A stretch of DNA of 64,000 nucleotides from Bacteroidota bacterium (GCA_037130365.1 JBAXTE010000001.1:4959-68958), one strand, 5' to 3'; positions 8,573 through 35,816 are shown, counted from the stretch's first letter. The notes: generated by a model not told the origin, from the letters alone. Translations and numbers: made by a program.

Positions 8573-9835
8573 CTATTCTTCAACTACCAATTGGATTGTA
8601 GTTCTACTTTTTTGTTCGGTTAATATTTTTCTTCCTTTTACAACTTTGTCTATCGTTTCTTGGTTGTAGTTTCTAACTGTAATTAACTCTAAATCTAGAT
8701 TATACCTTACTTTAAACTCAGTATTTAATTCTGCTATCAATCCTTTTAGTTTCTCTGGATTGTAATCAACACAAACAGAAAAACTAATTGCTGAATTTTG
8801 CATCAAGTTAATTTTTACGCCAAAATGGGCAAATAATCCAAAGATTAACGATAAGTTTTCTTCGGCAATAAACGAAAAATCGATAGGATAAATGGATATT
8901 AAAGCTTGATTTCGCTTAAATATATAACACGGAATATGGTTAGATGTTGATTCATTGCCTATCACACTTCCGGGTGCTTTGTGGTTAAAAAATGATTTTA
9001 CAATTAACGGAATAGATTTGTTTTGTAAAGGTTTTATGGTTTTAGGATGAATTATTGTCGCTCCGTAATAAGCAAGCTCTATCGTCTCTTTATACGAAAT
9101 TGAATCCAGTTTAACCGCATCTGAAAAGTATTTTGGGTCTGCATTTAAAAGCCCTGAAACATCTTTCCAAATGATTACTTCTTCGGCGTTTAGCGAATAT
9201 CCAAAAATAGCTGCTGAATAGTCAGAGCCTTCCCTCCCTAAGGTTGTAACATCACCTAGACCATTAGATGCAATAAAACCTTGACTAATTACAATATTGA
9301 TATTTTTATTACTAAATACCTCAATTACGTGTTGTTGAATTTTTTGTTCGGTTATCTGCCAATCTACAATTCCTTCTCGAAAATTTGAATCGGTTTGAAT
9401 GAGATTTCGAGCATCAACCCATTGATTGGGTAATCCAATTGAGTTTAGATAATCTGAAACTATTGAAGTAGAAAGAAGCTCTCCATAAGATACAATTTGA
9501 TCGTACTCATAATCATAATTATCACTTGGTTTGCTTTTCAAGTATTTGGTAAGCTCAGCAATAAATCCAATAGTTCTAGTTGATTTTTCTAAACTTCCTG
9601 AAAACAGCTCGTGGATAATAGACAAATGGTAATGCTCAATTTCAGCAATTTGTTTGGTATTATCGATTCCTTTATAAAAGTTCTCTGCTAGTAATTCTAG
9701 TGAATTTGTGGTTTTACCCATCGCAGAAACAACCATTACTAATTGCTGATGAGCATATTCATTAATTATTTTGCTAATGTTTTTAATCGATTCAGAGCTA
9801 CTAACCGATGCTCCTCCAAATTTGAATATTTTCAT
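8573..9835 (-). CDS. lysC: aspartate kinase
   Basis: N-terminal KFGGASV kinase motif, a GREGSDYSAA segment and a C-terminal ACT-like region. 420 aa. Confidence 0.9.
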   Translation of the reverse strand: MKIFKFGGASVSSSESIKNISKIINEYAHQQLVMVVSAMGKTTNSLELLAENFYKGIDNTKQIAEIEHYHLSIIHELFSGSLEKSTRTIGFIAELTKYLKSKPSDNYDYEYDQIVSYGELLSTSIVSDYLNSIGLPNQWVDARNLIQTDSNFREGIVDWQITEQKIQQHVIEVFSNKNINIVISQGFIASNGLGDVTTLGREGSDYSAAIFGYSLNAEEVIIWKDVSGLLNADPKYFSDAVKLDSISYKETIELAYYGATIIHPKTIKPLQNKSIPLIVKSFFNHKAPGSVIGNESTSNHIPCYIFKRNQALISIYPIDFSFIAEENLSLIFGLFAHFGVKINLMQNSAISFSVCVDYNPEKLKGLIAELNTEFKVRYNLDLELITVRNYNQETIDKVVKGRKILTEQKSRTTIQLVVEE

Positions 9836-9911
9836 TTATTAAATATTTTATTGCTAAATTTTAATCGATAAACGTATTTTTATCTTTTTTAATCACTGTT
9901 GTCCTATAAGA

Positions 9912-9964
9912 TTTCAATATTTTCAGCCCCTTTCTCTCCCCCAGTTGGCGGAGAAATATTGAAA
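9912..9964 (-). terminator. AT-rich stem-loop downstream of the 9973-10611 gene
   Basis: tttcaatattt (9912-9922) pairs with aaatattgaaa (9954-9964). An inner ctcc/ggag pairing is also possible. No clean U-tract. Confidence 0.3.
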
Positions 9965-9972
9965 ATTAAATA

Positions 9973-10611
9973 TTAATCTTTAGATAAATTCGGAAAGTAT
10001 ATTCTAGTCGGTGGTGGTGTTTCCGCTTTTTTACTATTCCCTTGGAGGATTTTTCTTCTATTAATTCCTAAATTATTTTTCTTGTTATATTCGATTAAAT
10101 GTATTTCAATTTCTGACATTAGAGTATCTGATAAATCGAGTTTTTTTAAATCTATTTCAATAGTCGTATCAATCTGTTCCCCTTTTTTTATCTTTGAGAT
10201 GATTGAAATTGGCTTTGATTGGCCAAGTGGAAACGAGATAATAAAGCAATAATCCGTATTGATTAAATTTTTATCACTATAAATACTAATCTTTTTTTTG
10301 CCAATTAAGTGCTTTTGAAGTTTTAAAGTTTCATCATTAAATAACAGACCTGTAGGTTGATTATTTATTGAAAAGCCTTTGTTTTTAATCAACATCATTG
10401 TTGTTTTGCAGATTTCGGATTCAAAGGACATTATGGTAAAAGCAAAAACATTATCAGAAGGCTCGTCGTAAGATTCCAACTGTCCGGTAACCGATAAATC
10501 ACAACCCAATAGTTTATTAAGGTACGCACCAATTTGAATAATACTTAACTTGCTGTTAAATAATATTGCAATTTGTTGATAATTAGGCTCGTACTTAATC
10601 TTACCGTGCAT
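9973..10611 (-). CDS. hypothetical protein
   Basis: 212-aa ORF with no motif I can assign. It occupies the slot upstream of rnc-fabF-acpP. It may be a diverged member of the Bacteroidota IPExxxVDY family (has ...NLINTDY...), which is unverified. Confidence 0.4.
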   Translation of the reverse strand: MHGKIKYEPNYQQIAILFNSKLSIIQIGAYLNKLLGCDLSVTGQLESYDEPSDNVFAFTIMSFESEICKTTMMLIKNKGFSINNQPTGLLFNDETLKLQKHLIGKKKISIYSDKNLINTDYCFIISFPLGQSKPISIISKIKKGEQIDTTIEIDLKKLDLSDTLMSEIEIHLIEYNKKNNLGINRRKILQGNSKKAETPPPTRIYFPNLSKD

Positions 10612-10793
10612 AAATTGAATAGTAAACGTTAACTACCAAAAGTAATTTATTTTAGCAAGTCAAAATCAATAAATCTAATCAACTTATTAGTCAATGGCTG
10701 TTGATAATTAGTACTTGCAAAAAAACTCCAACTTTTTGATTATGCGTGGCAACTAAAAAAGTTCTTTTACACTAGTTTTCTTACTGACATTAA

Positions 10794-11534
10794 TTACGAA
10801 ACAGGGGATAATTCGGTTGAATTAATTGTGAGATATGCACGTTCTGCAGCAAGTTGCTCTGCGCTTTTTATCGATAAATGGATTCCTGTGGCAAGAACTT
10901 CTCCGTTTAAAAGCACTTCAACACAATATTCTTTCCGTTTACCAAACTCCTTTACATCTGCAACACGAAAATCAATGGTAAATTTGTTTCGCTGTGCATA
11001 TTCGATAATTCTACTTTTATAATTGGTTTCAGTATTTAGCAATTCTTCAACATCTATCCACCTCGGTATAATATGATGTGTGATAATATGATAAGTATAT
11101 TTGTACCCTTTGTCGATATATAACGCTCCAATAAATGCTTCAAAAACATCTCCGTTTATCGACTTGTAATATAAATTATCGTTTCGTTTTTGAATGTACT
11201 CTGAAAGTCCAGTTTTTGCAGATAATTTATTTAAATGATCTCGTTTAACAATTTTAGACCGAGTTTCTGATAAAAACCCTTCATCAGCATTAGGATATTT
11301 TCTAAAAAGATAGGTAGCCACTATAGCTCCTAGTATAGAGTCACCTAAATATTCCAAACGTTCATTATTTATTTTTTGTCCCGATTGGGATTGGTAATTA
11401 CCCGATTTATGAGTAAATGCCAATTTATAAAGAAAAATATTTCTGGGAGTAATCCCAAAAATATTTTTCAAATATCTATAAAGCTCTTTGTCTTTAGAAA
11501 AGGTCGTTCTATAAAAACTTAGAATTGTATTCAA
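10794..11534 (-). CDS. rnc: ribonuclease III
   Basis: RNase III signature NERLEYLGDSILG plus a C-terminal dsRBD. Confidence 0.9.
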   Translation of the reverse strand: MNTILSFYRTTFSKDKELYRYLKNIFGITPRNIFLYKLAFTHKSGNYQSQSGQKINNERLEYLGDSILGAIVATYLFRKYPNADEGFLSETRSKIVKRDHLNKLSAKTGLSEYIQKRNDNLYYKSINGDVFEAFIGALYIDKGYKYTYHIITHHIIPRWIDVEELLNTETNYKSRIIEYAQRNKFTIDFRVADVKEFGKRKEYCVEVLLNGEVLATGIHLSIKSAEQLAAERAYLTINSTELSPVS

Positions 11535-11536
11535 AA

Positions 11537-12790
11537 CTAATCAACAAACTTTTTAAACAATAGTGAAGTATTATGTCCACCAAAGCCAAAAGCATTGCTC
11601 AAAGCATAATTAACAATTCTTTTTTGTGCTTTGTTAAAGGTAAAATTTAATCGGCTATCAATTTCAGGATCGTCGGTAAAATGATTTATTGTAGGAGGAA
11701 TAATATCATTTTTTATAGCCAAAATGGTAGCAATAGCTTCAATTGTAGCAGCAGCTCCCAATAAGTGACCAGTCATTGACTTTGTTGAATTGATATTAAT
11801 GGAATATGCATGTTCGCCAAATAATGAACATATTGCTTTTGGTTCTACAATATCTCCAACAGGAGTAGAAGTACCATGAGTATTAATATGATCAATTTGA
11901 TCTAAACGTATTCCTGCTTCTTCAATAGCATTTTTCATCGCCATTTTTGCGCCATAACCTTCAGGATGTGGTGCTGTTAAGTGATGAGCATCAGCTGTTA
12001 AACCAGTTCCGATTAGTTCGGCATAAATTTTTGCGCCACGTGCTTTTGCATGCTCATACTCTTCTAGAATAAGCGCTCCGGCACCTTCACCAACTACAAA
12101 GCCATCTCTATCTTTATCAAAAGGACGAGAAGCAGTAGCTGGATCATCATTACGTGTAGATAATGCGTGAAGTGCATTAAACCCACCAACTCCAGCAGTG
12201 TTTACACCTGCTTCGGAACCACCTGTAATAAACAAATCCGCTTTGCCTAATCGAATCATATTAAATGCATCAGAAATTGCGTTTGCTGATGATGCACATG
12301 CTGATGAAGTGCAAAAGTTTGGTCCTCTAAATCCAAAAATCATAGACAAATGTCCTGCAGCGATATCACTGATTATTTTTGGAATAAAAAATGGGTTAAA
12401 CTTTGGAGTACCATCACCAAGGGCGAACTCAGTCACCTCGGTTATAAAAGATGAAAAACCACCTATTCCTGTTCCCCAAATTACTCCAGCACGATCTAAA
12501 TCAATTGCTGTTAAATCTAATTGAGAATCAGTAATGGCTTCGGTAGCAGTAGCAACCGCATATTGAGAGAACAAATCTAGTTTTCGTGCTTCTTTCCGAT
12601 CTAAAAATTGAGACACATCAAAGTTTTTAACTTCACAAGCAAATTGTGTCTTAAATTTAGCGGAATCAAATTTAGTGATAGTGGCGGCACCACTCACTCC
12701 ATTAAGTAATCCAGTCCAATATTCTTCGACTGTATTACCTATTGGAGTAAGTGCTCCCATACCAGTAACAACTACTCTTTTTAGCTCCAT
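11537..12790 (-). CDS. fabF: beta-ketoacyl-ACP synthase II
   Basis: Active-site region TSSACASSANAI, HINTHGTSTP and a C-terminal NAFGFGGHN. 417 aa. Confidence 0.95.
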   Translation of the reverse strand: MELKRVVVTGMGALTPIGNTVEEYWTGLLNGVSGAATITKFDSAKFKTQFACEVKNFDVSQFLDRKEARKLDLFSQYAVATATEAITDSQLDLTAIDLDRAGVIWGTGIGGFSSFITEVTEFALGDGTPKFNPFFIPKIISDIAAGHLSMIFGFRGPNFCTSSACASSANAISDAFNMIRLGKADLFITGGSEAGVNTAGVGGFNALHALSTRNDDPATASRPFDKDRDGFVVGEGAGALILEEYEHAKARGAKIYAELIGTGLTADAHHLTAPHPEGYGAKMAMKNAIEEAGIRLDQIDHINTHGTSTPVGDIVEPKAICSLFGEHAYSININSTKSMTGHLLGAAATIEAIATILAIKNDIIPPTINHFTDDPEIDSRLNFTFNKAQKRIVNYALSNAFGFGGHNTSLLFKKFVD

Positions 12791-12819
12791 AAATTGGGTT
12801 TTAGCTAATTAAAAGCAAA

Positions 12820-13059
12820 TTACTTGCTAACATTATTTTCGATGAATGATATTGCATCACCAACAGTACTGATTTTTTCAGCTTGATCGTCTGGAATAGC
12901 AATGTTGAATTCTTTTTCGAATTCCATAATTAACTCAACAGTGTCTAATGAATCAGCACCTAAATCGTTAGTAAAGTTTGCTTCTGCAACAACATCTTTT
13001 TCGTCTACGCCAAGTTTATCAATAATGATAGCTTTAACTTTTGCTTGAATTTCTGACAT
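12820..13059 (-). CDS. acpP: acyl carrier protein
   Basis: 79 aa with the [16 protein letters not shown] phosphopantetheine attachment motif. Confidence 0.95.
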
Positions 13060-13323
13060 AATATTATTTTTAATGATTAAACCGAGGCAAAATTAATCGT
13101 TTTTAGTCTGTTTTTGTATCTTTTATATATTTGATTTTCTTTTTGATTATGCAATCAGCTGATCTATAGTGTTTTAAAATTGTTAAATTTCATTAAAACC
13201 CTTGTTTGACAACTTTTTTGAACTCTACATGCTTCTTTTTCGGACAAATTTGTCATTTATTTTGTTCCTTTGCAGGGAAGTCTCTACTTTCTGATTGTTT
13301 TTTTATTAATATTTTTTTGAATT

Positions 13324-13914
13324 ATGAAAAAAATTGTGATTTTTGCTTCTGGAAGTGGTAGTAATGCTCAACGAATTATTGAATTTGCTTTAAACGAACC
13401 TAATTCCAACTTTCGAGTGGAAGCAATTTTTTGTAATAACCCAAATGCTTTTGTGATTCATCGCGCTAAAAAGTTTAATGTCCCTTGTTATCTGTTTGAT
13501 AGAGCACAATTTAATTCAATGAATCAGAATTCAGTGCTTTCAAAACTTCAGGAAATTAATCCATCTCTAATTGTTTTAGCAGGTTTTTTATGGTTGATTC
13601 CTGATTTTATAGTTAAATCGTTTCCAAATAAAATAATCAATATTCATCCTGCACTTTTACCAAAATATGGGGGAAAAGGAATGTATGGAGAACGTGTTCA
13701 TCAGGCAGTAATTGAACATCAAGAGACTGAATCTGGAATTACAATTCATTACGTTTCAGAATATTACGACGAAGGAAATATTATTGCCCAATATAAATGT
13801 TCCGTGGCTGCCAATGATTCTGCAGACTCTTTAGCGCAAAAGATTCACACTCTTGAACATCAGTGGTTTCCTGTTGAAATAAATGATTTGTGTAAAAATA
13901 TTGAGGTAATTTAA
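13324..13914 (+). CDS. purN: phosphoribosylglycinamide formyltransferase
   Basis: ASGSGSNAQ, INIHPALLPKYGG and GITIHYV motifs. 196 aa. Confidence 0.9.
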   Translation: MKKIVIFASGSGSNAQRIIEFALNEPNSNFRVEAIFCNNPNAFVIHRAKKFNVPCYLFDRAQFNSMNQNSVLSKLQEINPSLIVLAGFLWLIPDFIVKSFPNKIINIHPALLPKYGGKGMYGERVHQAVIEHQETESGITIHYVSEYYDEGNIIAQYKCSVAANDSADSLAQKIHTLEHQWFPVEINDLCKNIEVI

Positions 13915-13935
13915 CATCAATATTTTATAGGTGTA

Positions 13936-14139
13936 TCAACCTCCATGAAACAAGTGAATAATTTCCACATTGTCTCCATTGTTGACAGTCATAGCACTGT
14001 AATTTTCGTGCTTAATGAGAACTGCGTTAATCTTTATAATTAAATCGTGATGCGAGTACTTTTTTAGTTTTATAATATCCCCAATCGTCAAACAATCTGC
14101 TTCAAAAATTTCAGTATTGTGATTTAATTTAATTGTCAT
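13936..14139 (-). CDS. thiS: ThiS/MoaD-type sulfur carrier protein (C-terminal GG)
   Basis: 67 aa, beta-grasp size, ending ...IIHLFHGG. Lies 12 nt downstream of the ThiF-like gene. Whether it is ThiS or MoaD cannot be decided from sequence alone. Confidence 0.65.
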   Translation of the reverse strand: MTIKLNHNTEIFEADCLTIGDIIKLKKYSHHDLIIKINAVLIKHENYSAMTVNNGDNVEIIHLFHGG

Positions 14140-14151
14140 ATCACCGATTTT

Positions 14152-14736
14152 TTATTTTTTTAGTAAAATTGAGAGTATTTCGTTTGCCATCATATTCGAC
14201 ACAATTCCAACTCGGGGGGCTAAAGGGGGATTGTTTTCAGCAACTTCACTTTTCATATCTCCACAAATAATTAATTTGTCGGAGTAAAATGGTTTTATCT
14301 CCAGACTATTTCCCCAACCAGCCATTCCGTTGCCTGATATTATGTATTTATCGGACATTTCGCTGAGTACAGTTTCAATAATCATTTGCTTCATATCCGA
14401 CCGGTCGAATGCTTCCACAATAATGTCACAATCAGAAAACAAATCAACAACTGAAGCAGAATCTAATTTTGTATTGTGAGCCTCCACAGCTACTTCGGGA
14501 TTAATCCGCAAGATATTTTCTTTTAATGTAGTAGCTTTTGGTAATCCAATTTGATCGAAAAAATAATATTGACGATTTAAGTTCGAAAGTTCTATCACAT
14601 CAAAATCAGCAATAACAAGTTTGCCAATTCCTACGCGTGCAAGAGCCACAGCACAGTTTGATCCCAGCCCACCACAGCCAGCAATTCCTACTTTTTTGGT
14701 CTTTAATTCTGTTTTTATCTCGTTAAATGTCATCAT
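14152..14736 (-). CDS. thiF: short ThiF/MoeB-family E1-like adenylyltransferase
   Basis: GIAGCGGLGSNCAVALARVGIGKLVIADFDVIELSNLNRQ nucleotide-binding fold. 194 aa, with no rhodanese or Zn-finger extension. Confidence 0.7.
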   Translation of the reverse strand: MMTFNEIKTELKTKKVGIAGCGGLGSNCAVALARVGIGKLVIADFDVIELSNLNRQYYFFDQIGLPKATTLKENILRINPEVAVEAHNTKLDSASVVDLFSDCDIIVEAFDRSDMKQMIIETVLSEMSDKYIISGNGMAGWGNSLEIKPFYSDKLIICGDMKSEVAENNPPLAPRVGIVSNMMANEILSILLKK

Positions 14737-14939
14737 ATTGCAAAATTAAATCTTTCAACAATATAATTATCATTGAATTCAAATAATTTTTAAATCAGGA
14801 TAAGAATTTATCACACAAAATAAATCTTAACAAATCATCGATTTTTCAAATATAATTCAAATTCAACTACATACCTGATATGTAAGAATTTGCATAACGC
14901 AATTTTCAGAATTTATAGAATTAGTTTGATTTTATTTAC

Positions 14940-14947
14940 TATTTTTG
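14940..14947 (+). promoter_or_regulatory. candidate Bacteroidota -7 promoter box (TAnnTTTG) for the oxidoreductase gene
   Basis: TATTTTTG lies 45 nt upstream of ATG 14992. Confidence 0.35.
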
Positions 14948-14991
14948 CTTTCAACATTCAAATGTAAACGAACAATAAACAATATATTTAT

Positions 14992-17151
14992 ATGGACATT
15001 GCAGCATTAAAGAGCAAACAAACCCTATTGAAAGAATGGGAATATCAGCACACGCCTCTTTATAGAGGATATACCGACAAAATTTTGTATATCAATGTAG
15101 GGACAAAAGAGATTAAATCGAAAGATGTTCCTGCTCCAATGAAAGAAAAATTTATTGGCGGAAAAGGCTATGGATTACGTTTATTGTGGGATGCAACAAC
15201 ACCTACAACTAAATGGAATGATGCTGAAAATGAAATTATTATTTCTTCTGGTCCAATTGGTGGAATTACCCAATATTCTGGTGCTGGAAAGTCTTTATTA
15301 GTTTCAATTTCACCCCAAACCGATTCCATTATGGACTCAAATGTGGGTGGATTTTTTGGTTCGTTTCTTAAGTTTTCTGGCTTTGACGCTCTTGAACTTC
15401 AAGGAAAATCAGACAAAGATGTTATTATATATATTGATGCTGTTAACCATAAAATTGAGATTATGGAGGACCCAGGGTTTTCCACAGATTCTCATATTTT
15501 AGGAGAAGAGCTTACCGAATATTACGCAAACAACGAAAAAGAGTGTAAAAATATAGGTATTGTTTCTGCAGGTGCAGGTGCAGAAAACTCGTTAATTGGC
15601 ATGATTAATTTTACGTTTTGGGATAATAAACGTAAACAAATTCGATTAAAACAAGCTGGTAGAGGCGGAATAGGCACCGTAATGCGCGACAAGAAAATTA
15701 AAGCTATTGTTGCAAAAATTTCTGGGGTTCAAGGAAATGCAAATAATGTAGCTGACCTTGAACTTATCATGGAAAGAGGCCGTAGATACACTCGTGAAAT
15801 GGTTGAACTTGATGATAAGCAAAACCAAATGAGAAAAAAAGGAACAGCAAACATTGTAAATGTAATGAGCGATTACGATTTGCTGCCAACTCATAACTTC
15901 AAATACGGAACACACAAAGATGCTATTAAAATTCATAGTGATTTATTAAGAGATAAACATTTTACTCAAGGGATAAATGATGGATGCTGGATTGGCTGTG
16001 CCATGCAATGCGCTAAAGGTGTAGATGATTTTGTACCCAAAACCGGTCCTTACAAAGGCCAAAAAGTTCTTGTAGAAGGTCCAGAATATGAAACGGCTGC
16101 CGGATTAGGTTCCAATATTGGCATTTTTGATTATGATGCAATTATTGAAGCGAATTTCTATTGTGATACTTACGGAATTTGCACCATTACTTGGGGAACA
16201 ATCGTTGCTTTCTTGATGGAATGCTACGAAAATGGAATCATAAATAAAGAAATTACAGGCGGTTTAGAATTAAATTTTGGAAATGTTAATGATTCATTAG
16301 AATTAATGCATCAACTTGCTCGTGGCGAAGGATTTGGTAAAATTGCTGGAATGGGAATTCGTAAAATGAAAGCAATTTTTGTTAAAGAATATGGCGCTGA
16401 TACAAATTTTCTTCAAGATATTGGCATGGAAAACAAAGGGTTAGAGTATTCACAATATGTTTCTAAAGAATCGTTGGCTCAACAAGGTGGTTATGCAATG
16501 ACCAATAAAGGTCCACAACACGACGAAGCTTGGTTGATTTTTATGGATATGGTAAATAATCAAATTCCAACATTTGAAGATAAAGCAGAAGCATTACACT
16601 ATTTCCCTATGTTTAGAACTTGGTTTGGATTAATGGGACTTTGTAAAATTGTATGGAATGATGTGAGTCCTGCTGATAATAAACTAACCGACGAACCTGC
16701 AAAAATTCCTGAACATGTAGATAATTATGTAAATGTTTATAGAGGTGTAACGGGTGATTTATCATTTGATAAATATGCCTTAGTTCGCATGTCGGAAAGA
16801 GTGTATAATTTCCAACGGATTTTCAATATTCGACGTGGATTTGGTCTTCGTAAAAACGATGCTCAACCATACCGTGCTGCTGGTCCTGTTACTGTGGAAG
16901 AATACGAATCAAGAGCAGAACGTTACGATAAACAGATGAAAGAACTAATTGGAGTAAATCCAGAAGGTTTATCTGTAGAAGAAAAAGTAAAAATTACACG
17001 CGCATATCGTGAAGATCGCTACGAACAACTTCTCGATGCTGTTTACGAACGTAGAGGTTGGAATAAAAATGGAGTTCCAACTCTAGCGCATCTTAAAAAT
17101 ATTGGAATGGATTTACCTGAGTTAATCGAAGTCGTTACACCCTTACAATAA
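14992..17151 (+). CDS. aor: aldehyde:ferredoxin oxidoreductase family (tungstopterin enzyme)
   Basis: AFOR N-terminal domain (YRGYTDKILYINV...GGKGYGLRLLW), GPEYETAAGLGSN, a cysteine cluster CWIGCAMQC, and C-terminal YERRGWNKNGVPT. 719 aa. Confidence 0.9.
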   Translation: MDIAALKSKQTLLKEWEYQHTPLYRGYTDKILYINVGTKEIKSKDVPAPMKEKFIGGKGYGLRLLWDATTPTTKWNDAENEIIISSGPIGGITQYSGAGKSLLVSISPQTDSIMDSNVGGFFGSFLKFSGFDALELQGKSDKDVIIYIDAVNHKIEIMEDPGFSTDSHILGEELTEYYANNEKECKNIGIVSAGAGAENSLIGMINFTFWDNKRKQIRLKQAGRGGIGTVMRDKKIKAIVAKISGVQGNANNVADLELIMERGRRYTREMVELDDKQNQMRKKGTANIVNVMSDYDLLPTHNFKYGTHKDAIKIHSDLLRDKHFTQGINDGCWIGCAMQCAKGVDDFVPKTGPYKGQKVLVEGPEYETAAGLGSNIGIFDYDAIIEANFYCDTYGICTITWGTIVAFLMECYENGIINKEITGGLELNFGNVNDSLELMHQLARGEGFGKIAGMGIRKMKAIFVKEYGADTNFLQDIGMENKGLEYSQYVSKESLAQQGGYAMTNKGPQHDEAWLIFMDMVNNQIPTFEDKAEALHYFPMFRTWFGLMGLCKIVWNDVSPADNKLTDEPAKIPEHVDNYVNVYRGVTGDLSFDKYALVRMSERVYNFQRIFNIRRGFGLRKNDAQPYRAAGPVTVEEYESRAERYDKQMKELIGVNPEGLSVEEKVKITRAYREDRYEQLLDAVYERRGWNKNGVPTLAHLKNIGMDLPELIEVVTPLQ

Positions 17152-24812: not shown

Positions 24813-24905
24813 TTGTTAATTGTTAATAATGAGCTATTTTGAGTTATTAGTGATAGGACTAAGAAAAAAACGAATATTCTTATTGCTTTTTTTTGAAACT
24901 TGACC

Positions 24906-24913
24906 TATCTTTG
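24906..24913 (+). promoter_or_regulatory. candidate -7 promoter box (TATCTTTG) upstream of the surface-protein locus
   Basis: 146 nt upstream of ATG 25059, implying a long leader. Confidence 0.3.
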
Positions 24914-25058: not shown

Positions 25059-26408
25059 ATGAAAATGAAAACGCACATAAAACCATTACTTAAAGCACTT
25101 ATAACAAGGTATATATTCTTTGTTTTTGTGATTTTAAGTGTTATAAAGGTATCTGCACAAAACTATTCTTTTTCAATATATGGTTATGGCGTTTATTGCA
25201 CCAATGATGCATATATTTTTATTCCTGGCAATTTAACTTCCCATGATATGACTGTACCTGGTGTGATTAATTTAGATGGAAAAATTGAATTATGGGGAGA
25301 TATTGATAATCAATCAACTGGTCCATTTTTTATTGATATTGAAGATGATCCTATTGGCGATTTAGTTATGGTTAGCCCTGATGGTTTTAACCAATCAATT
25401 AACGGCATAACTCCCATCGAATTTGAAAATTTACATTTAGATTTTTTTACAAAGAATCTAGAATTAAATAATTGTATTACATATGGAACCCTTTCAATAA
25501 ATTCACGTTTTAATTTGAATTCAAATAATTTTATTTTAAAACGTAAAAACCCCGTTCAACCAAGTCCTCCTGGTCAGTTAAATTATGAAACTGGTCATAT
25601 TCATAGCGAATCTTTACCGCCAACTTATGGAACTTTACAATGGAACATTAAAAATGGTATTGGTCAGTATAAAATTCCTTTTGGATCGGGTGCATCTGAT
25701 GGAAGTGGAAATGATAAGGATTTAGAATTAATTTATGATGTTACAATTCCTGGTAGTGCAGATGGATTTGTAAAATTTGCAACTTATCCTACTCCTTTTG
25801 ACAACAGACCTTTCCCTGTTGGAGTGTTTTCTTTAGCACCTCATAGCGATATTAATGTTGTAGATCGTTTTTGGATTATTGACCCCGATTATTCTACTCG
25901 TCCAGATATAAAACTTACCTTTAATTATATTGACGTAGAAACACGCTCTCCAAATTTTATCAATAAAAGCGAATTTAAAGCAATTCGATATAATCCAAAT
26001 AGCTCTAGCTGGAATGATTGGGTTCCAATTTCTCAAAGTAATCCAGATATATATAAAGTATCTACTCAAGCAATTCCAAAACAACATTTTTTCACAAATT
26101 GGACTTTAGCCAGTGAAGAAGCTGGTGGAGATATTTGGATTCCAAATGCATTTACTCCAGATAGAGATGAAAGTTACCTGAACGAAAGTTTTGGTCCTGT
26201 TATAACATTCCCTTATGCAAAATATGAATTCTATGTATTAGATCGTTGGGGTGAGCAAATTTTCACTTCCGACAATATTCTTAACAGATGGGATGGAACT
26301 TTAGGTGGTGTCGTGGTTAATGGAGGAGTTTATACATGGTTAATTGTGCTGACCAAAAGCACTGGAAAAAAATATAAATATACTGGTACAGTAAACGTTA
26401 TTTTATAA
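25059..26408 (+). CDS. T9SS type B (gliding-motility CHU_C) C-terminal sorting domain protein
   Basis: Signal peptide. C-terminus [11 protein letters not shown]...[16 protein letters not shown]...[17 protein letters not shown] matches the type B CTD pattern. Confidence 0.8.
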
Positions 26409-26413
26409 TAATA

Positions 26414-28315
26414 ATGAAGATGAAAGCATTTTTAATTAATTTCTTTGGAAAAAAAATATTACTTACCATATTAATTTTGGCAAGTATTGGAGCTCAAGCA
26501 CAACAGGGGGTTTTAATTAGCGATAATAGTTCAACGAGTTTTGGACCACCTCAGGTTAATTCTGCTTTGGAAATTATATCCTATAATAAAGGATTATTAA
26601 TTCCCAGAATGAGCACAATGCAACGATTAAACATGACTCCTACTACAGATTTAATAAGAGCAAATGGATTAATGGTTTACGATACAGATTTAAATTGTGT
26701 TTTTATATGGAGAAAAGATGCTGCTCCTCTTGCTGTAGATTGTTGGTTTTCACTTTGTAATGGAAGTGCTGGAACTGCTGGCCCTACTGGGGCAACAGGT
26801 GCTAACGGCACAAATGGCACCTCTGGATATGGGCTAGGTTTTTATATTGGCCATGATACTTTATTTGTTTTTGTAGATACTTTAGGCGTTGATTCTACTT
26901 TAAATTACTATATAATTCCTACTGGTGCTGCTGGTGCCACAGGCGCTACAGGTGCTACAGGAGATACTGGAGTTGCTGGAGTTGCTGGTCCTGGACTAGA
27001 TTACTCATGGTCAAATGATTCTTTGTGGATTCACGTTGTTGGAAGTTCCGACTCATTAGGACATCCATTAATTATTGGTCCGATTGGTCCTACTGGTCCT
27101 ACTGGATTAACAGGTCCTACTGGAATTGATGGGCCTACTGGTCCTATTGGTCCTACTGGAATAGATGGTTTGGTCGGCCCTACTGGTGCAACAGGTGCAA
27201 CGGGAGATCCTGGTCCTACTGGTCCTATTGGCCCCACTGGAATTGATGGTTTGGTTGGCCCTACTGGATTAACTGGTCCTACTGGAATTGATGGCCCTAC
27301 TGGCCCTATTGGCCCTACTGGAATTGATGGCTTGGTTGGTCCTACTGGCACAACTGGCGCCACGGGTGATCCTGGCCCCACTGGTCCTACTGGAATTGAT
27401 GGTCCTACTGGATCTATTGGATTAACTGGTCCTACTGGAATTGATGGCCCTACTGGCCCTATTGGACCACAAGGAAACCCTGGAACTCCAGGTACCCCTG
27501 GGTCAAATGGATTACCTGGTGCAGCTGGTCCAATTGGTCCTATCGGTCCTGCTGGTCCTGCTGGTCCTGTTGGTCCTGCTGGTCCTATTGGAGACATGGG
27601 ACCCATTGGCAACGATGCAACTATGGATATTGATTGGAATGGAACTCAACTTGGGATTAGTGTTAATGGAAGTCCTTATGTATATTCAGATTTAGTTGGC
27701 CCTATTGGAAGCCCTGGCACACCTGGCGCCAACGGGTCAAACGGTTTACCAGGTGCTCAGGGTGGCGATGGCCCTCAGGGTCCTGCTGGTCCTGCTGGTC
27801 CTCAAGGAATTCAAGGCCCTATTGGCGTTCAAGGAGATCCTGGATCTGTTGCTTGTAGTCAAAATAATTATGTTTTAAAAACTATTGGAACCACTGCTGA
27901 TTGTTCTGGAATATATGAAGATGATTATTTAAACGTTGGATTAGGAAACTCTGATCCAAAAACGAAATTAGATATTAATGGCAATATCGCTTTAAGAGTT
28001 GACCCTGCAAATCCACAAATTTCTATAACTTCTGACGTATATAACCTTAATATTGGTCCAAATTCTTTTGTCCGATTATCGAGCGATGCATCTCATGAAG
28101 TTTCAGGAATTTTGGAAGAATTTGATGGTAAAATGCTTATCATTACTAATATTGGAGCAAATGACATTGTCTTTAAAAATGATAATGTAAATGGTGGAAT
28201 TACAAATAGATTTTTGTTTAGCACTGGTGCAGATATTACATTAAGTTCTAACCATACTATTACCATTATCTACGACTTTTATTCAAAAAAATGGAGAGAT
28301 ATTTCTTTTAGATAA
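26414..28315 (+). CDS. secreted collagen-like (Gly-X-Y) repeat protein
   Basis: Signal peptide. Four Gly-X-Y tracts, the longest about 58 triplets (27077-27602). Non-collagen N-terminal and C-terminal globular regions. Starts 5 nt after the upstream gene. Confidence 0.85.
27107..27466 (+). repeat. in-frame tandem DNA repeat inside the collagen-like gene (units of 162 and 153 nt plus a partial third)
   Basis: Units start with ttaac(a/t)ggtcctactggaattgatgg at 27107, 27269 and 27422, and are near-identical over more than 70 nt. Confidence 0.8.
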
Positions 28316-28331
28316 TTGTTAAAAGCGTTAT

Positions 28332-28369
28332 AAAAAAAAAGAGTTTGGCCGTGTCAAACTCTTTTTTTT
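28332..28369 (+). terminator. rho-independent terminator
   Basis: A-run, gagtttg (28341-28347), loop gccgtgt, caaactc (28355-28361), then T8. Confidence 0.75.
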
Positions 28370-28480
28370 ATAATATAAATAGAAAAAAATGACTTTATTA
28401 AATAAAGTTTGTAGATTTACAACTAAAAATCATTTTTTTTCGTCTAACAATTATATAAATATAAATAAATCTCTTGTTCA

Positions 28481-30709
28481 ATGAAAAAAATCAAGATAAT
28501 TATTCTATTATTAAGTATTTTTCAAATATCGATATTTGCACAACCAACATTAACAACAAGCGTAACTCAAAATACAATTTGCGACGGAGTAGGTTGTAAT
28601 TATGTAGGCCCATCGATATTAATTAACGAAGTAATGCTTTGTCCATCGCAATTTGACGGATCCATATATGGTGATGGACCTGGATTTTCTGCAAATACAA
28701 ATGCAGGCGAATGGATAGAATTGTATAATCCTGATTACTGTTTTCCCAAAGATATTTCTGGATTTTTGTTAGGCAACAATGCCCCCGACAACGGAACAAA
28801 TTATGGAGGTGGTTTTGTAATCCCTGCAAATACGATTGTTCCAAGTAGAGGATTCTGCGTTATTCGTGGTGTAAATGCAACACCAGTTCCCTCAAACTTA
28901 CTTATTCAAAACGGGGGAAATACGATTGAAATTATTGTAAATAACACAAATTCATGCATTAATGGTGGATTTCGATTGTGGTTTCCAAATGCTGGTGGTT
29001 GGTTTGCTTTTTACGACCGAAATGGGAATCCTCAAGATGGTATTTCCTGGGCTTCAACAACAAACTCATGTTCAAATTGTAATGCATGTATTCCACCATC
29101 TAGCTCATTTGCGGGAACATTACCAACATATGATGCAATACCAGCAACAATGAAAACTTATATTTCAACAACTGGTCCAACCGCTGGTTTTACTTTCCGT
29201 CGTTACCCTGATGGAGGAGGATGGCAGATTTCAACTCCAGCAACTCCAACATTAGGAACGTGTAATGGCCCTTGTGTTTTACCAGCAGTAGTTACATGTA
29301 ATGGCACAGCGCAAGTAGTTGCACAAGGAGGTACAGCGCCATATCAATACCTTTGGAACGGGGGTAGTAGTCCAATAAATTCTTTAGATACTGGTTTATG
29401 TGGAGGCACTTATATTGTAACTGTAACCGATAATGCTGGTCTTACATCAACTGCAAGTGTTGTTGTTCCAAATTGGGTTCCTTCATCTTCTTTTTCACTT
29501 ACACCAGATACGTTTTGTTTAAATAATTCTGCAACAGCAACCTATACTGGAGATGTTGCTGATACAGCTACATTTAATTGGACAATTACTGGTGGTACGC
29601 TTAATTCTGGAATAGGTGTTGGTCCGCAAATAGCATCAACTACTACTATTGGAAGCCATACAGTTGGACTTACTGTTGTGCAAAATGGATGTCCTTCACC
29701 ACTTACAGAGCATACTTTTTATGTTTTTCAAATACAATCGAATGCTTCTGTTGTCCATCCTCCATTATGTGCGTTATCATCTACTGGTGAGGCCACTGCG
29801 AATGGCTTAGTGGGTGTATCTCCCTACCATTATCTATGGAGTAATGGGAATCCAACTCAAAACGCGACAAGTTTAGCAGCAGGTCAATATATTGTTACCG
29901 TTACTGATGCAATCGGATGCACATCTTCATCTACGATCACGATAATAGACCCTTCGCCATTAACATTAATCACAAATGCCTCAGACGAAACGTGTAGCGG
30001 CTATTGCAATGGTTCCATAAATGTAACAGCATCTGGGTCTACACCACCTTACAGTTACGCATGGCAAGGAAGCACATCAACTACATATCAAGCCAATAAT
30101 CTCTGCGTTGGTAGTTACTCCGTTATCGTTACAGATTCAAATAATTGTACAGCAACTGCCACTGAAATAATAAATTTCACGAACGAAATTTCTGCAATTG
30201 CAAATGCAAATCCACCAGAAGGTGTTGCACCTGCGGATATTCAATTTACTTACATAGGGAATGGCGCAACAACATTTGATTGGGGATTTGGAGATGGTAG
30301 TAGTGCGTTTAATGCAAACCCAATTCATCAATACGTAAATGCCGGAACTTATACCATTACCCTTATTGTAACGAGTGGTGCTCCTAATTTTTGCGCTGAT
30401 ACCACATGGTTAACGGTAGTAATAGTACCACCTTCTAATGTAACAATACCTAATATTTTCACTCCAAATAATGATGGATTTAACGATAATTTTTTTGCTG
30501 TTTCTTCAGGATTAGATCGCGAAACAATGAAAATTTACAACCGATGGGGAAGAGTGGTTTTTTCATCAGAAACTGTATCTGAGCCTTGGAATGGAAAAAA
30601 CGGAAACAACGAAGAGCTTTCTGATGGTATTTATTATTATATTTATCACTCAACAGGATTCGATAAAAAAGTGTATGATTTTCATGGATCAGTAACTTTA
30701 TTGAGATAA
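28481..30709 (+). CDS. T9SS type B CTD adhesin-like protein (lamin-tail domain, SprB repeats, PKD domain)
   Basis: LTD (ILINEVM...GEWIELYNP). Three SprB-type repeats (GGTAPYQYLWNGG...YIVTVTDNAG; SPYHYLWSNG...YIVTVTDAIGC; TPPYSYAWQG...YSVIVTDSNNC). PKD (FDWGFGDGS...YVNAGTYTITL). CTD IPNIFTPNNDGFNDNF...IYNRWGRVVF...WNGKN..DGIYYYIY. Confidence 0.85.
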   Translation: MKKIKIIILLLSIFQISIFAQPTLTTSVTQNTICDGVGCNYVGPSILINEVMLCPSQFDGSIYGDGPGFSANTNAGEWIELYNPDYCFPKDISGFLLGNNAPDNGTNYGGGFVIPANTIVPSRGFCVIRGVNATPVPSNLLIQNGGNTIEIIVNNTNSCINGGFRLWFPNAGGWFAFYDRNGNPQDGISWASTTNSCSNCNACIPPSSSFAGTLPTYDAIPATMKTYISTTGPTAGFTFRRYPDGGGWQISTPATPTLGTCNGPCVLPAVVTCNGTAQVVAQGGTAPYQYLWNGGSSPINSLDTGLCGGTYIVTVTDNAGLTSTASVVVPNWVPSSSFSLTPDTFCLNNSATATYTGDVADTATFNWTITGGTLNSGIGVGPQIASTTTIGSHTVGLTVVQNGCPSPLTEHTFYVFQIQSNASVVHPPLCALSSTGEATANGLVGVSPYHYLWSNGNPTQNATSLAAGQYIVTVTDAIGCTSSSTITIIDPSPLTLITNASDETCSGYCNGSINVTASGSTPPYSYAWQGSTSTTYQANNLCVGSYSVIVTDSNNCTATATEIINFTNEISAIANANPPEGVAPADIQFTYIGNGATTFDWGFGDGSSAFNANPIHQYVNAGTYTITLIVTSGAPNFCADTTWLTVVIVPPSNVTIPNIFTPNNDGFNDNFFAVSSGLDRETMKIYNRWGRVVFSSETVSEPWNGKNGNNEELSDGIYYYIYHSTGFDKKVYDFHGSVTLLR

Positions 30710-34505: not shown

Positions 34506-35816
34506 TTACTTTACTTCCTCGCCACCAAAAAAGCCTTTGAGCATATCCGAAAGCTTTGTGTTCGAAATATCTCTAGGTGGTTTTTTTGGTTTTTCTTTTT
34601 TAACTTTGGCTTCTGTTGATGTAGAATTTACAAATTCATTTTCTGGCTCTACAGCTTTAGGTATATGACGATTAAACCCCTCAATAACCAAACCTATACT
34701 AGTTGCATAACTTGGATTAAGTAAGTCTTTGTTTGTTTCTGGTGAAATTTTTTCACTAGGAGCACCTATTCTGGCTTCCATTCCTGTTGTAAACTCAACT
34801 AATTCTTTTAAATGCTTCAACTGCGACCCACCACCGGTAAGAACAATACCAGCGATCAGTTTTTTCTTATATCCACTATTTTGAATTTCATAATCTATTT
34901 GCTCTACAATTTCTTCCACTCTTGCTTGAATGATATGAGCTAAATTACGAAGGGAGATTTCTTTTGGAGGACGCCCTTTTAATCCAGGAATTGAAACAAT
35001 TTCATCATCTCTATTTTGTTCTGCCAAACAAGACCCATATTTCACCTTTAATGCTTCGGCTTGAACTTTTATTATGGTGCATCCTTCTTTTACATCTTCG
35101 GTAATTGTATTTCCACCAAGAGGAATAACTGCAGTGTGTCGAATGATGTTGTCCTGAAAAATTGCAATATCAGAAGTACCACCACCTATATCAACTAAAA
35201 CCACACCGGCTTCTTTTTCTTCATCACTCAAAACCGATTCTGATGAAGCTAAAGGCTCAAGCACAAGAGCTTCTAGTTCAAGACCAGCTTTTACAACGCA
35301 ACGATAGATATTTTTAATGGCACTTTCATTTCCTGTGATAATATGAAAATTAGCGCCAAGCTCAACGCCAGCCATACCGATAGGTTCACGAATTCCTGTT
35401 TCTCTGTCAATGATAAACTCTTGAGGAATAACATCAATAATTTGCTCCCCAGGTTTCATTACCAATTTTTTCATATTATCGGTAAGTTTGATAATATCTT
35501 TTTTTGAAATTTCGTCCACAGTGTTATCACGAAGTACGTTTCCACGATGTTGAATACTTTTTATATGTTGACCCGCAATTCCAACCACCACAGAACCAAT
35601 CTCAACTCCACTTTCGCGTTCAGCCATTTCAACGGCAGTTCGAATTGAGGTGACTGTTTTTTCAATATTTGCAACTTGACCTCTCATCACACCTGTAGAC
35701 TCGGCTTTTCCTGATCCTAAAATTTCAATATTGCCATTTTTGTCTTTACGACCAACGATTACAGCAATTTTTGTAGTTCCAATGTCTAATCCAACAATAA
35801 GTTCTGAATTTTCCAT
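34506..35816 (-). CDS. ftsA: cell division protein FtsA
   Basis: Actin-like ATPase motifs GLDIGTTKIAV and DIGGGTSDIA. Basic C-terminal tail. Confidence 0.95.
   Translation of the reverse strand: MENSELIVGLDIGTTKIAVIVGRKDKNGNIEILGSGKAESTGVMRGQVANIEKTVTSIRTAVEMAERESGVEIGSVVVGIAGQHIKSIQHRGNVLRDNTVDEISKKDIIKLTDNMKKLVMKPGEQIIDVIPQEFIIDRETGIREPIGMAGVELGANFHIITGNESAIKNIYRCVVKAGLELEALVLEPLASSESVLSDEEKEAGVVLVDIGGGTSDIAIFQDNIIRHTAVIPLGGNTITEDVKEGCTIIKVQAEALKVKYGSCLAEQNRDDEIVSIPGLKGRPPKEISLRNLAHIIQARVEEIVEQIDYEIQNSGYKKKLIAGIVLTGGGSQLKHLKELVEFTTGMEARIGAPSEKISPETNKDLLNPSYATSIGLVIEGFNRHIPKAVEPENEFVNSTSTEAKVKKEKPKKPPRDISNTKLSDMLKGFFGGEEVK

Follow-up and report, generated by a model that had tools for sequence, protein, structure and literature searches.

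In Flavobacterium johnsoniae, nine of the 12 genes for type-B substrates of the T9SS (type IX secretion system) adjoin an sprF-like gene, while the three orphans (Fjoh_1123, Fjoh_1720, Fjoh_4934) share one unlinked SprF-like shuttle, Fjoh_1677 (PMC12618676), and type-B proteins are thought to be anchored via PorP-like proteins (PMC9143113). Here we report on a 64-kb stretch of DNA from a Bacteroidota bacterium (GCA_037130365.1, JBAXTE010000001.1:4959-68958; the window in what follows) and on a locus of three plus-strand genes in it, g1, g2 and g3. Like the orphans, g1 and g3 carry a CHU_C-type C-terminal sorting domain (CTD) and have no porP/sprF-like neighbour. Unlike the orphans, which are not described as paired with the gene of a CTD-less fibre, g1 is directly followed by such a gene (g2), and its passenger is a short family-specific domain of 320 amino acids (aa) rather than a long adhesin. 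The orphan behaviour of type-B cargo as seen with g1 and g3 is thus already known, and since F. johnsoniae has three such substrates the absence of a neighbouring shuttle gene is unremarkable; an earlier reading of the locus (the sequence-only reading), which had singled out the missing SprF/PorP partner as a distinctive feature, does not hold in this respect (PMC12618676). What sets the locus apart is the pair of g1 and g2, which may best be explained as a two-gene surface-fibre module of Lentimicrobiaceae-like Bacteroidales and other Bacteroidota. We put the probability at roughly one half that g1 acts in it as a T9SS-addressed adaptor or anchor for a CTD-less g2 trimer.

The SprB/SprF system with its sprCDBF operon is similar in that type-B cargo is encoded in an operon together with accessory surface proteins, and SprB repeats are found in g3; it differs in that no SprF gene is present here and that g1 is not SprB-like, and we know of no collagen or tail-fibre-like trimer partner in spr operons. 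Bacterial collagens such as Scl1 and Scl2 of Streptococcus, Lcl of Legionella and BclA of Bacillus have in common with g2 a Gly-X-Y stalk, a globular head and a repeat number that varies between strains. From all of these g2 differs in its N-terminal module and, if our reading is right, in an anchoring logic that relies on a separate T9SS-tagged partner. Moreover, it scores far below the NCBIfam equivalog cut-offs for Lcl (NF046116, 165 against 500), SclB (NF038329, 136 against 325) and SclA (NF038330, 125 against 400), with matches over the collagen part only. Tail fibres and receptor-binding proteins of phages, namely those in which a collagen-like stalk bears a Peptidase_S74 or depolymerase head, follow the same overall plan, in that they attach by a conserved N-terminal end and have a trimeric stalk with a C-terminal head that can be exchanged. 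Proteins of the g2 type, however, start with a Sec signal peptide, are not encoded near phage genes and have a cellular, T9SS-tagged partner where phages have a baseplate. The components (type-B cargo, bacterial collagen, phage-like fibre modules) are therefore familiar; it is their conserved pairing which appears to be undescribed. In literature of incomplete coverage, no T9SS-tagged protein was found described as the dedicated partner of a CTD-less collagen-like or tail-fibre-like protein.

The case for a module is made by the linkage of the two genes. We inspected the contexts of g1 homologues from 56% down to 28% identity and ran hidden Markov models (HMMs) of the N-terminal part of g1 (N-part) and of the conserved N-terminal module of g2 (N-module) on the open reading frames (ORFs) of the window and 85 fetched loci. 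To search for loci, the alignment of 27 g1 sequences proved too diverse and a 10-sequence subset was used instead; most of the 80 loci found matched the CHU_C domain alone, so that they could serve as controls. All N-module ORFs (16/16) directly adjoin an ORF with the g1 N-part, whereas 69 control loci with other CHU_C genes, amounting to 1.11 Mb, contain not a single N-module ORF. Counted by lineage, every CHU_C-bearing g1 homologue with its flank present adjoins a fibre gene in about 16 diverged lineages, and further look-ups (L086, L090/91, L092, L094/95) found the pair in all. The paired genes invariably lie on the same strand, 2-176 nucleotides (nt) apart, and occur in two orders: either g1 precedes the fibre gene (window, L001-L012, L090-L095) or the fibre gene precedes that of a g1-like protein of 764-767 aa with PKD domains (L013, L028, L039, L086). 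Given that flanking genes are unrelated between lineages and that g1 identity goes down to 28-35%, the linkage seems to be maintained by selection. Hence, g1 and g2 very probably form a functional module, and their strong co-conservation across related loci agrees with the sequence-only reading, which had suggested that the two genes belong together. The few exceptions include a locus where a contig end cuts off the fibre N-terminus (L087) and a weak partial match to the g1 N-part with no partner and little flank (L071).

Partner fibres share nothing except the N-terminal module of some 60-90 aa. Behind it, the stalk may consist of collagen, of two N-modules with little collagen or of YadA_head repeats, and the C-terminus may resemble Phage_depo_C, may be Peptidase_S74, or may be unrelated, either as a short tail or as a large domain; the partners with a collagen stalk range from 364 to 1466 aa in total length. 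The first description of g2 as a collagen-like gene is thus right as far as its Gly-X-Y repeats are concerned, but cannot be extended to the family, in which some partners have other stalks in place of collagen.

Within one anaerobic-digester population, identical copies of g1 and of its flanks come with a collagen partner of 388, 526 or 364 aa (L002:9329-10495, L003:6887-8467 and L004:6647-7741, respectively), the difference lying in the number of Gly-X-Y repeats, so stalk length in that population is a strain-level polymorphism. Two paralogous g1-fibre pairs were found in one metagenome-assembled genome (L005 and L006, both on the 614,487-bp contig CAUVYH020000027.1 / ctg33937l), with g1 copies 52% and 35% identical to g1 of the window. 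The second of these pairs, which includes the 1466-aa collagen protein, directly follows an aldehyde:ferredoxin oxidoreductase (AFOR) gene; the window has the same upstream synteny from AA_kinase to AFOR (8573-17151) and no pair after AFOR. Furthermore, L013 (5726-7982, minus strand) and L086 (10292-12563, minus strand) encode a different CTD-less Peptidase_S74 fibre of 592-594 aa, which has another N-terminus, and, 1-10 nt behind it, a 158-aa protein bearing a type-A CTD (Por_Secre_tail). This fibre and its small CTD-bearing neighbour may be a second case of such pairing.

g1 is composed of a signal peptide (aa 1-33), a β-rich family-specific N-part (aa 34-355) and a CHU_C/type-B CTD (aa 361-445). 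The latter is the sole family match of the protein (PF13585, 35.1 bits with a cut-off of 27) and bears out the type-B CTD that had been assigned to this 449-aa product beforehand; it is matched in 27/27 aligned members of the g1 family. An AlphaFold2 model based on the 27-sequence alignment is all-β and confident, with a predicted local distance difference test score (pLDDT) of 88.6, and its C-terminus superposes on the T9SS CTD of NucA (8glk_D, TMt 0.68 in Foldseek), a structure in which the CTD of a T9SS substrate is bound to the translocon. The signal peptide was judged by inspection, with a hydrophobic N-terminal helix at aa 7-28 of the model and predicted cleavage between A33 and Q34. Directly after that site, Q34 is invariant in 27 sequences, as would fit exported proteins of Bacteroidota, which are known to favour glutamine at the N-terminus. 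For aa 34-355, we found neither a Pfam family nor a sequence relative in the PDB, and Foldseek searches against PDB and BFVD gave no meaningful match to the N-part, the CTD alone being matched. The family is small (76 hits, about 47 of them full length with 410-450 aa), all its members have CHU_C and they come from Lentimicrobiaceae, Bacteroidales and other Bacteroidota metagenome-assembled genomes.

As for g2, its N-module has a core motif that includes R......GLMVYDTD..C and is matched by the N-module HMM with E = 3.6e-31. The collagen region that follows scores 130.5 bits with Pfam Collagen (PF01391) and contains 93 Gly-X-Y triplets in runs of 8, 8, 60 and 17, rich in Pro at X and in Thr at Y; its DNA is internally repetitive, with tandem repeats of 9 to 81 nt at 27076-27591, and the PDB sequence matches of g2 are to collagen chains only. 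The inserts that split the runs (26834-26923, 26996-27076 and 27617-27697) are each about 27-30 aa long with the common motif 'D..W.g..L.v.V', and similar non-collagen inserts are present in the partner fibres of L001, L002 and L005. An ORF antisense to g2 (27031-27612, minus strand, 193 aa, Pro/Gly-rich) is a by-product of the collagen repeats and no gene.

Is g2 then a T9SS substrate in its own right? Models of T9SS sorting domains (PF18962, PF13585, TIGR04183, TIGR04131) gave no match to g2 at E<=0.1, as the sequence-only reading had anticipated for the gene it placed 5 nt behind g1 (the g1 stop ends at 26408 and the g2 ATG starts at 26414). A cryptic CTD was considered nonetheless and rejected, because no T9SS model matches, the C-terminal domain is not kept across partners, whose C-termini are not homologous across the family, and segments related to it sit N-terminally and internally in another protein (P0163). 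The head domain at the g2 C-terminus is conserved only in L001 and L006-L008, and an AlphaFold2 model of it from a 4-row alignment was not used (pLDDT 46.9). An LPXTG motif is missing from g2, and neither g2 nor the L013 partner has a C-terminal YadA-type membrane anchor, though the latter has YadA_head repeats. PHROG tail-fibre families match g2 over the collagen repeats only and do not match g1 at all; being driven by collagen, the matches on g2 are uninformative on its origin. Judged by its domain make-up, g2 is more aptly called a putative trimer of the phage-tail-fibre type whose N-terminal module is conserved.

With the g2 module as query, an exhaustive search by HMMER returned 1337 clusters (at 50% identity) with E<=1e-3, and many members, in proteins of up to about 4000 aa, have the module 2-9 times; the first 123 aa and the last 164 aa of g2 gave no matches in word-indexed searches for homologues. 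Precomputed hits of PF26696 (PTL_trimer) are on record for partner fibres in L001, L086, L090, L092 and L094, to which g2 is linked by the N-module HMM. The Pfam copy that we scanned produced a PTL_trimer match on no fibre tested, even the L001 partner, and is apparently a copy without that model; the literature searched gave nothing relevant on the meaning of 'PTL_trimer'. Relatives of the N-module show weak matches to Mtd_N and DUF2793, and its profile found no solved structure. When C-termini of proteins with a signal peptide and the module were sampled, 66/68 had no T9SS CTD, two had one of type A and none of type B, while the heads among the 68 comprised Peptidase_S74 (11), phage tail collar (4), Phage_depo_C (4) and Fib_succ_major (3). 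By these signatures, g2 is a member of a large class of predicted exported proteins that resemble phage tail fibres, have heads that can be exchanged and carry no T9SS tag.

A strict linkage, a CTD-bearing g1 with a passenger domain of its own and a CTD-less fibre with a constant N-terminal end together lead us to read g1 as an adaptor or anchor, in agreement with the sequence-only reading, which had proposed that g1 may supply the T9SS address or anchor; neither of the two outcomes it named as refuting, a cryptic CTD in the collagen-like protein and a pair not co-conserved in other genomes, was found. We infer trimer formation, g1-g2 binding, T9SS dependence of g2 and its surface location from this arrangement and envisage the following course. 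Sec signal peptides would take g1 and g2 to the periplasm, where g2 may trimerise via its PTL_trimer-like N-module and the collagen triple helix to give a thin fibre on the plan of a phage tail fibre, having a constant N-terminal end and a stalk and C-terminal head that vary with lineage. The N-part of g1 would then bind the constant end of this fibre. Once recognised by the T9SS, g1 would be received by an unlinked PorP/SprF-type shuttle, as is the case with the F. johnsoniae orphans, and might take the fibre through the outer membrane, serve as its tether there or do both, such that the variable head would face outward as an adhesin. The more specific claim that the T9SS exports or docks a pre-assembled CTD-less trimer which hitch-hikes on a small partner with a type-B CTD, and that g1 is the founding fibre adaptor, we regard as doubtful.

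Several observations weigh against g1 as adaptor or anchor. For one, the N-module class with its 1337 clusters is far larger than the g1 family with its 76 hits, which suggests that most N-module fibres are handled without a g1-type partner and that their exporter may not be g1. For another, a protein that resembles the g1 N-part and has no CHU_C (L088/L089) has no fibre neighbour, and in L092 a second fibre gene lies about 4 kb from g1 rather than adjoining it. The CTD of g1 itself stays under the cut-off of the NCBIfam type-B model (TIGR04131, 25.1 bits, cut-off 35). Compensating cysteines were sought across 15 g1-fibre pairs and none were found. Finally, to our knowledge no CTD-less protein has been established to hitch-hike through the T9SS, nor did our literature searches retrieve one. 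An intermolecular disulfide as the bond between g1 and g2 was rejected, the Cys pattern being inconsistent and the module free of Cys in the partners of L090, L094, L013, L028 and L086.

It is possible, albeit on the unlikely side, that the two genes cooperate without g1 being the export vehicle. In that scenario, g2 would cross by a route proper to the N-module class, relying on an unrecognised signal in the N-module or on some other pathway, and g1 would be a separately secreted accessory such as a base-plate-like dock, a co-adhesin or an assembly factor. A g1-independent route is needed for most of the class in any case, seeing that it is large (1337 clusters), that 66/68 of its sampled members go without a CTD and that g1-type partners are rare, and co-conservation would fit any functional partnership rather than export specifically. 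However, in none of the loci do the surroundings of the pair encode another signal or machinery for export across the outer membrane, and the second CTD-less fibre of L013/L086, with its type-A CTD protein, hints that a pairing of this kind recurs.

Improbable in our view is a g2 that is no surface fibre but a structural or spacer element which remains periplasmic or sits on the outer membrane's inner face; its linkage to g1 would then stem from an interaction within the periplasm, such as a part played in the quality control of g1 or in retaining it. This would agree with g2 having a Sec signal peptide only and no recognisable signal for outer-membrane targeting. Yet the variable heads are of phage receptor-binding types (depolymerase C-terminal, tail collar, Peptidase_S74, Fib_succ_major, lectin-like) and the collagen length is polymorphic between strains, features typical of exposed adhesins that diversify. 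Even less credible is that the pair is no surface structure of the cell and was left behind by a prophage, a tailocin or a contractile injection system, with g2 as tail fibre and g1 as assembly or attachment protein. While the PHROG tail-fibre matches on g2, weak Mtd_N/DUF2793 matches in its relatives and the phage-type heads of the class could be taken that way, those PHROG matches cover the collagen repeats alone and spare g1, both proteins have Sec signal peptides, g1 has a T9SS CTD, and in no locus is the pair flanked by phage or injection-system genes, its neighbours being housekeeping genes. A fortuitous adjacency of functionally unrelated genes is effectively refuted by 16/16 N-module ORFs beside a g1-type ORF, as opposed to none in the 69 control loci (1.11 Mb), and by a pairing kept across differing flanks and two gene orders.

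It is the CTD that defines T9SS cargo, and proteins without one are assumed to be outside the system, although in Bacteroidota a very large class of predicted exported proteins similar to phage tail fibres has variable receptor-binding heads but lacks a CTD. If g1 does serve as adaptor, a CTD-bearing partner would be a new way to recruit T9SS cargo and would explain how the fibre is displayed, and the pair would be a compact two-gene adhesin system with exchangeable heads in anaerobic-digester and gut-type Bacteroidales. If hitch-hiking on g1 were true as well, the same logic of a CTD-less phage-like fibre and a small partner with a CTD might account for surface display in some of the N-module fibres without a CTD, of which Bacteroidota have more than 1000 clusters. 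Should the adaptor idea be wrong, what is left is a conserved operon of unknown function that includes an ordinary orphan type-B cargo.

With respect to the shuttle, a Pfam scan gave no PorP_SprF match (PF11751) between 24.8 and 32.3 kb, in line with what had been read from the sequence, nor any among the scanned window ORFs of at least 120 aa, a scan which left out 11 ORFs of a presumed dcw cluster at 34.5-48 kb (among them FtsA, 34506-35816; FtsZ was recognised by eye). Precomputed Pfam lists for the surroundings of g1 homologues, to a distance of about 8 kb, likewise lack PorP_SprF. That the organism has a T9SS is suggested by two ORFs of the window. One, on the minus strand at 60655-63978 (1107 aa), is PorU2-like, with Peptidase_C25 and an NF052324 score of 291.7 bits (cut-off 450) that is probably low due to truncation of the ORF by the window end. 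The other (48276-50039, minus strand) encodes ordinary T9SS cargo, a cysteine peptidase of the C10 (streptopain-like) type that has a Spi inhibitor domain at its N-terminus, a CUB domain and a type-A T9SS CTD. Core T9SS genes (sprA/sov, gldKLMN, porV, porP) are located beyond the 64 kb.

Features of the locus, with positions counted from the first nucleotide of the window
Feature	Position	Strand	Remarks
Candidate Bacteroidota-type promoter (weak, inferred assignment)	24883-24913	+	TTG, ~20 nt, TAtcTTTG; upstream of g1
g1, predicted exported protein, 449 aa	25059-26408	+	Signal peptide, β-rich N-part, CHU_C CTD
g1 CHU_C type-B C-terminal sorting domain	26139-26393	+	PF13585, aa 361-445
g2, CTD-less fibre protein, collagen-like and similar to a phage tail fibre, predicted to be exported, 633 aa	26414-28315	+	
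g2 conserved N-terminal module	26507-26773	+	aa 32-120; corresponds to PF26696 PTL_trimer in homologues
g2 collagen region	26762-27850	+	Four Gly-X-Y runs split by three non-collagen inserts
g2 C-terminal β-rich head domain, not a T9SS CTD	28037-28297	+	Marginal Phage_depo_C match (PF25692, 26.7 bits, cut-off 25)
Intrinsic terminator-like hairpin	28327-28374	+	A-run and U-run flanks; closes the g1-g2 unit
g3, type-B CTD adhesin-like protein, 742 aa	28481-30709	+	Weak LTD, 3 SprB repeats, PKD, CHU_C

The putative promoter upstream of g1, a weak candidate, has a TAnnTTTG at 24906-24913 that was read straight off the sequence. At the other end of the g1-g2 unit, the strong terminator proposed behind the collagen gene was confirmed by folding (dG -20.1 kcal/mol, z = -5.67), as 0/200 shuffles fold equally well; a consensus scan had missed it because its stem is poor in G-C pairs. 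Beyond this hairpin lies g3, whose CHU_C match (PF13585, 65.3 bits, cut-off 27) and TIGR04131 score (41.7 bits, cut-off 35) both exceed the thresholds for a type-B CTD. Its earlier description as a 742-aa adhesin with LTD, SprB repeats and PKD stands for the SprB repeats (63 bits), PKD (PKD_4, 43 bits) and the CTD, but not for LTD, which remains below its cut-off (27.8 bits against 34.3). Two type-B cargo genes do bracket the collagen gene in the window; as a module, however, this arrangement does not hold, for g3 follows the pair in no loci but those of the closest synteny group (window, L001, L006-L008) and is absent from L002-L005, L011-L013, L086, L090 and L094. Because g3 is missing from most lineages and placed behind the terminator, a role for it as third component was rejected; the gene is a transcription unit of its own and a lineage-specific neighbour outside the conserved module. 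The CTDs of g1 and g3 are only 27% identical. The upstream neighbour of g1 is a gene for a tetratricopeptide repeat lipoprotein, and g3 is followed by that of an α/β hydrolase. Further downstream, in the presumed dcw cluster, only a 181-aa ORF with Mur_ligase_C (40305-40850, minus strand) is present where murD would be expected, which could mean that the gene is truncated, that there is a problem with the assembly or that the arrangement is an unusual one.

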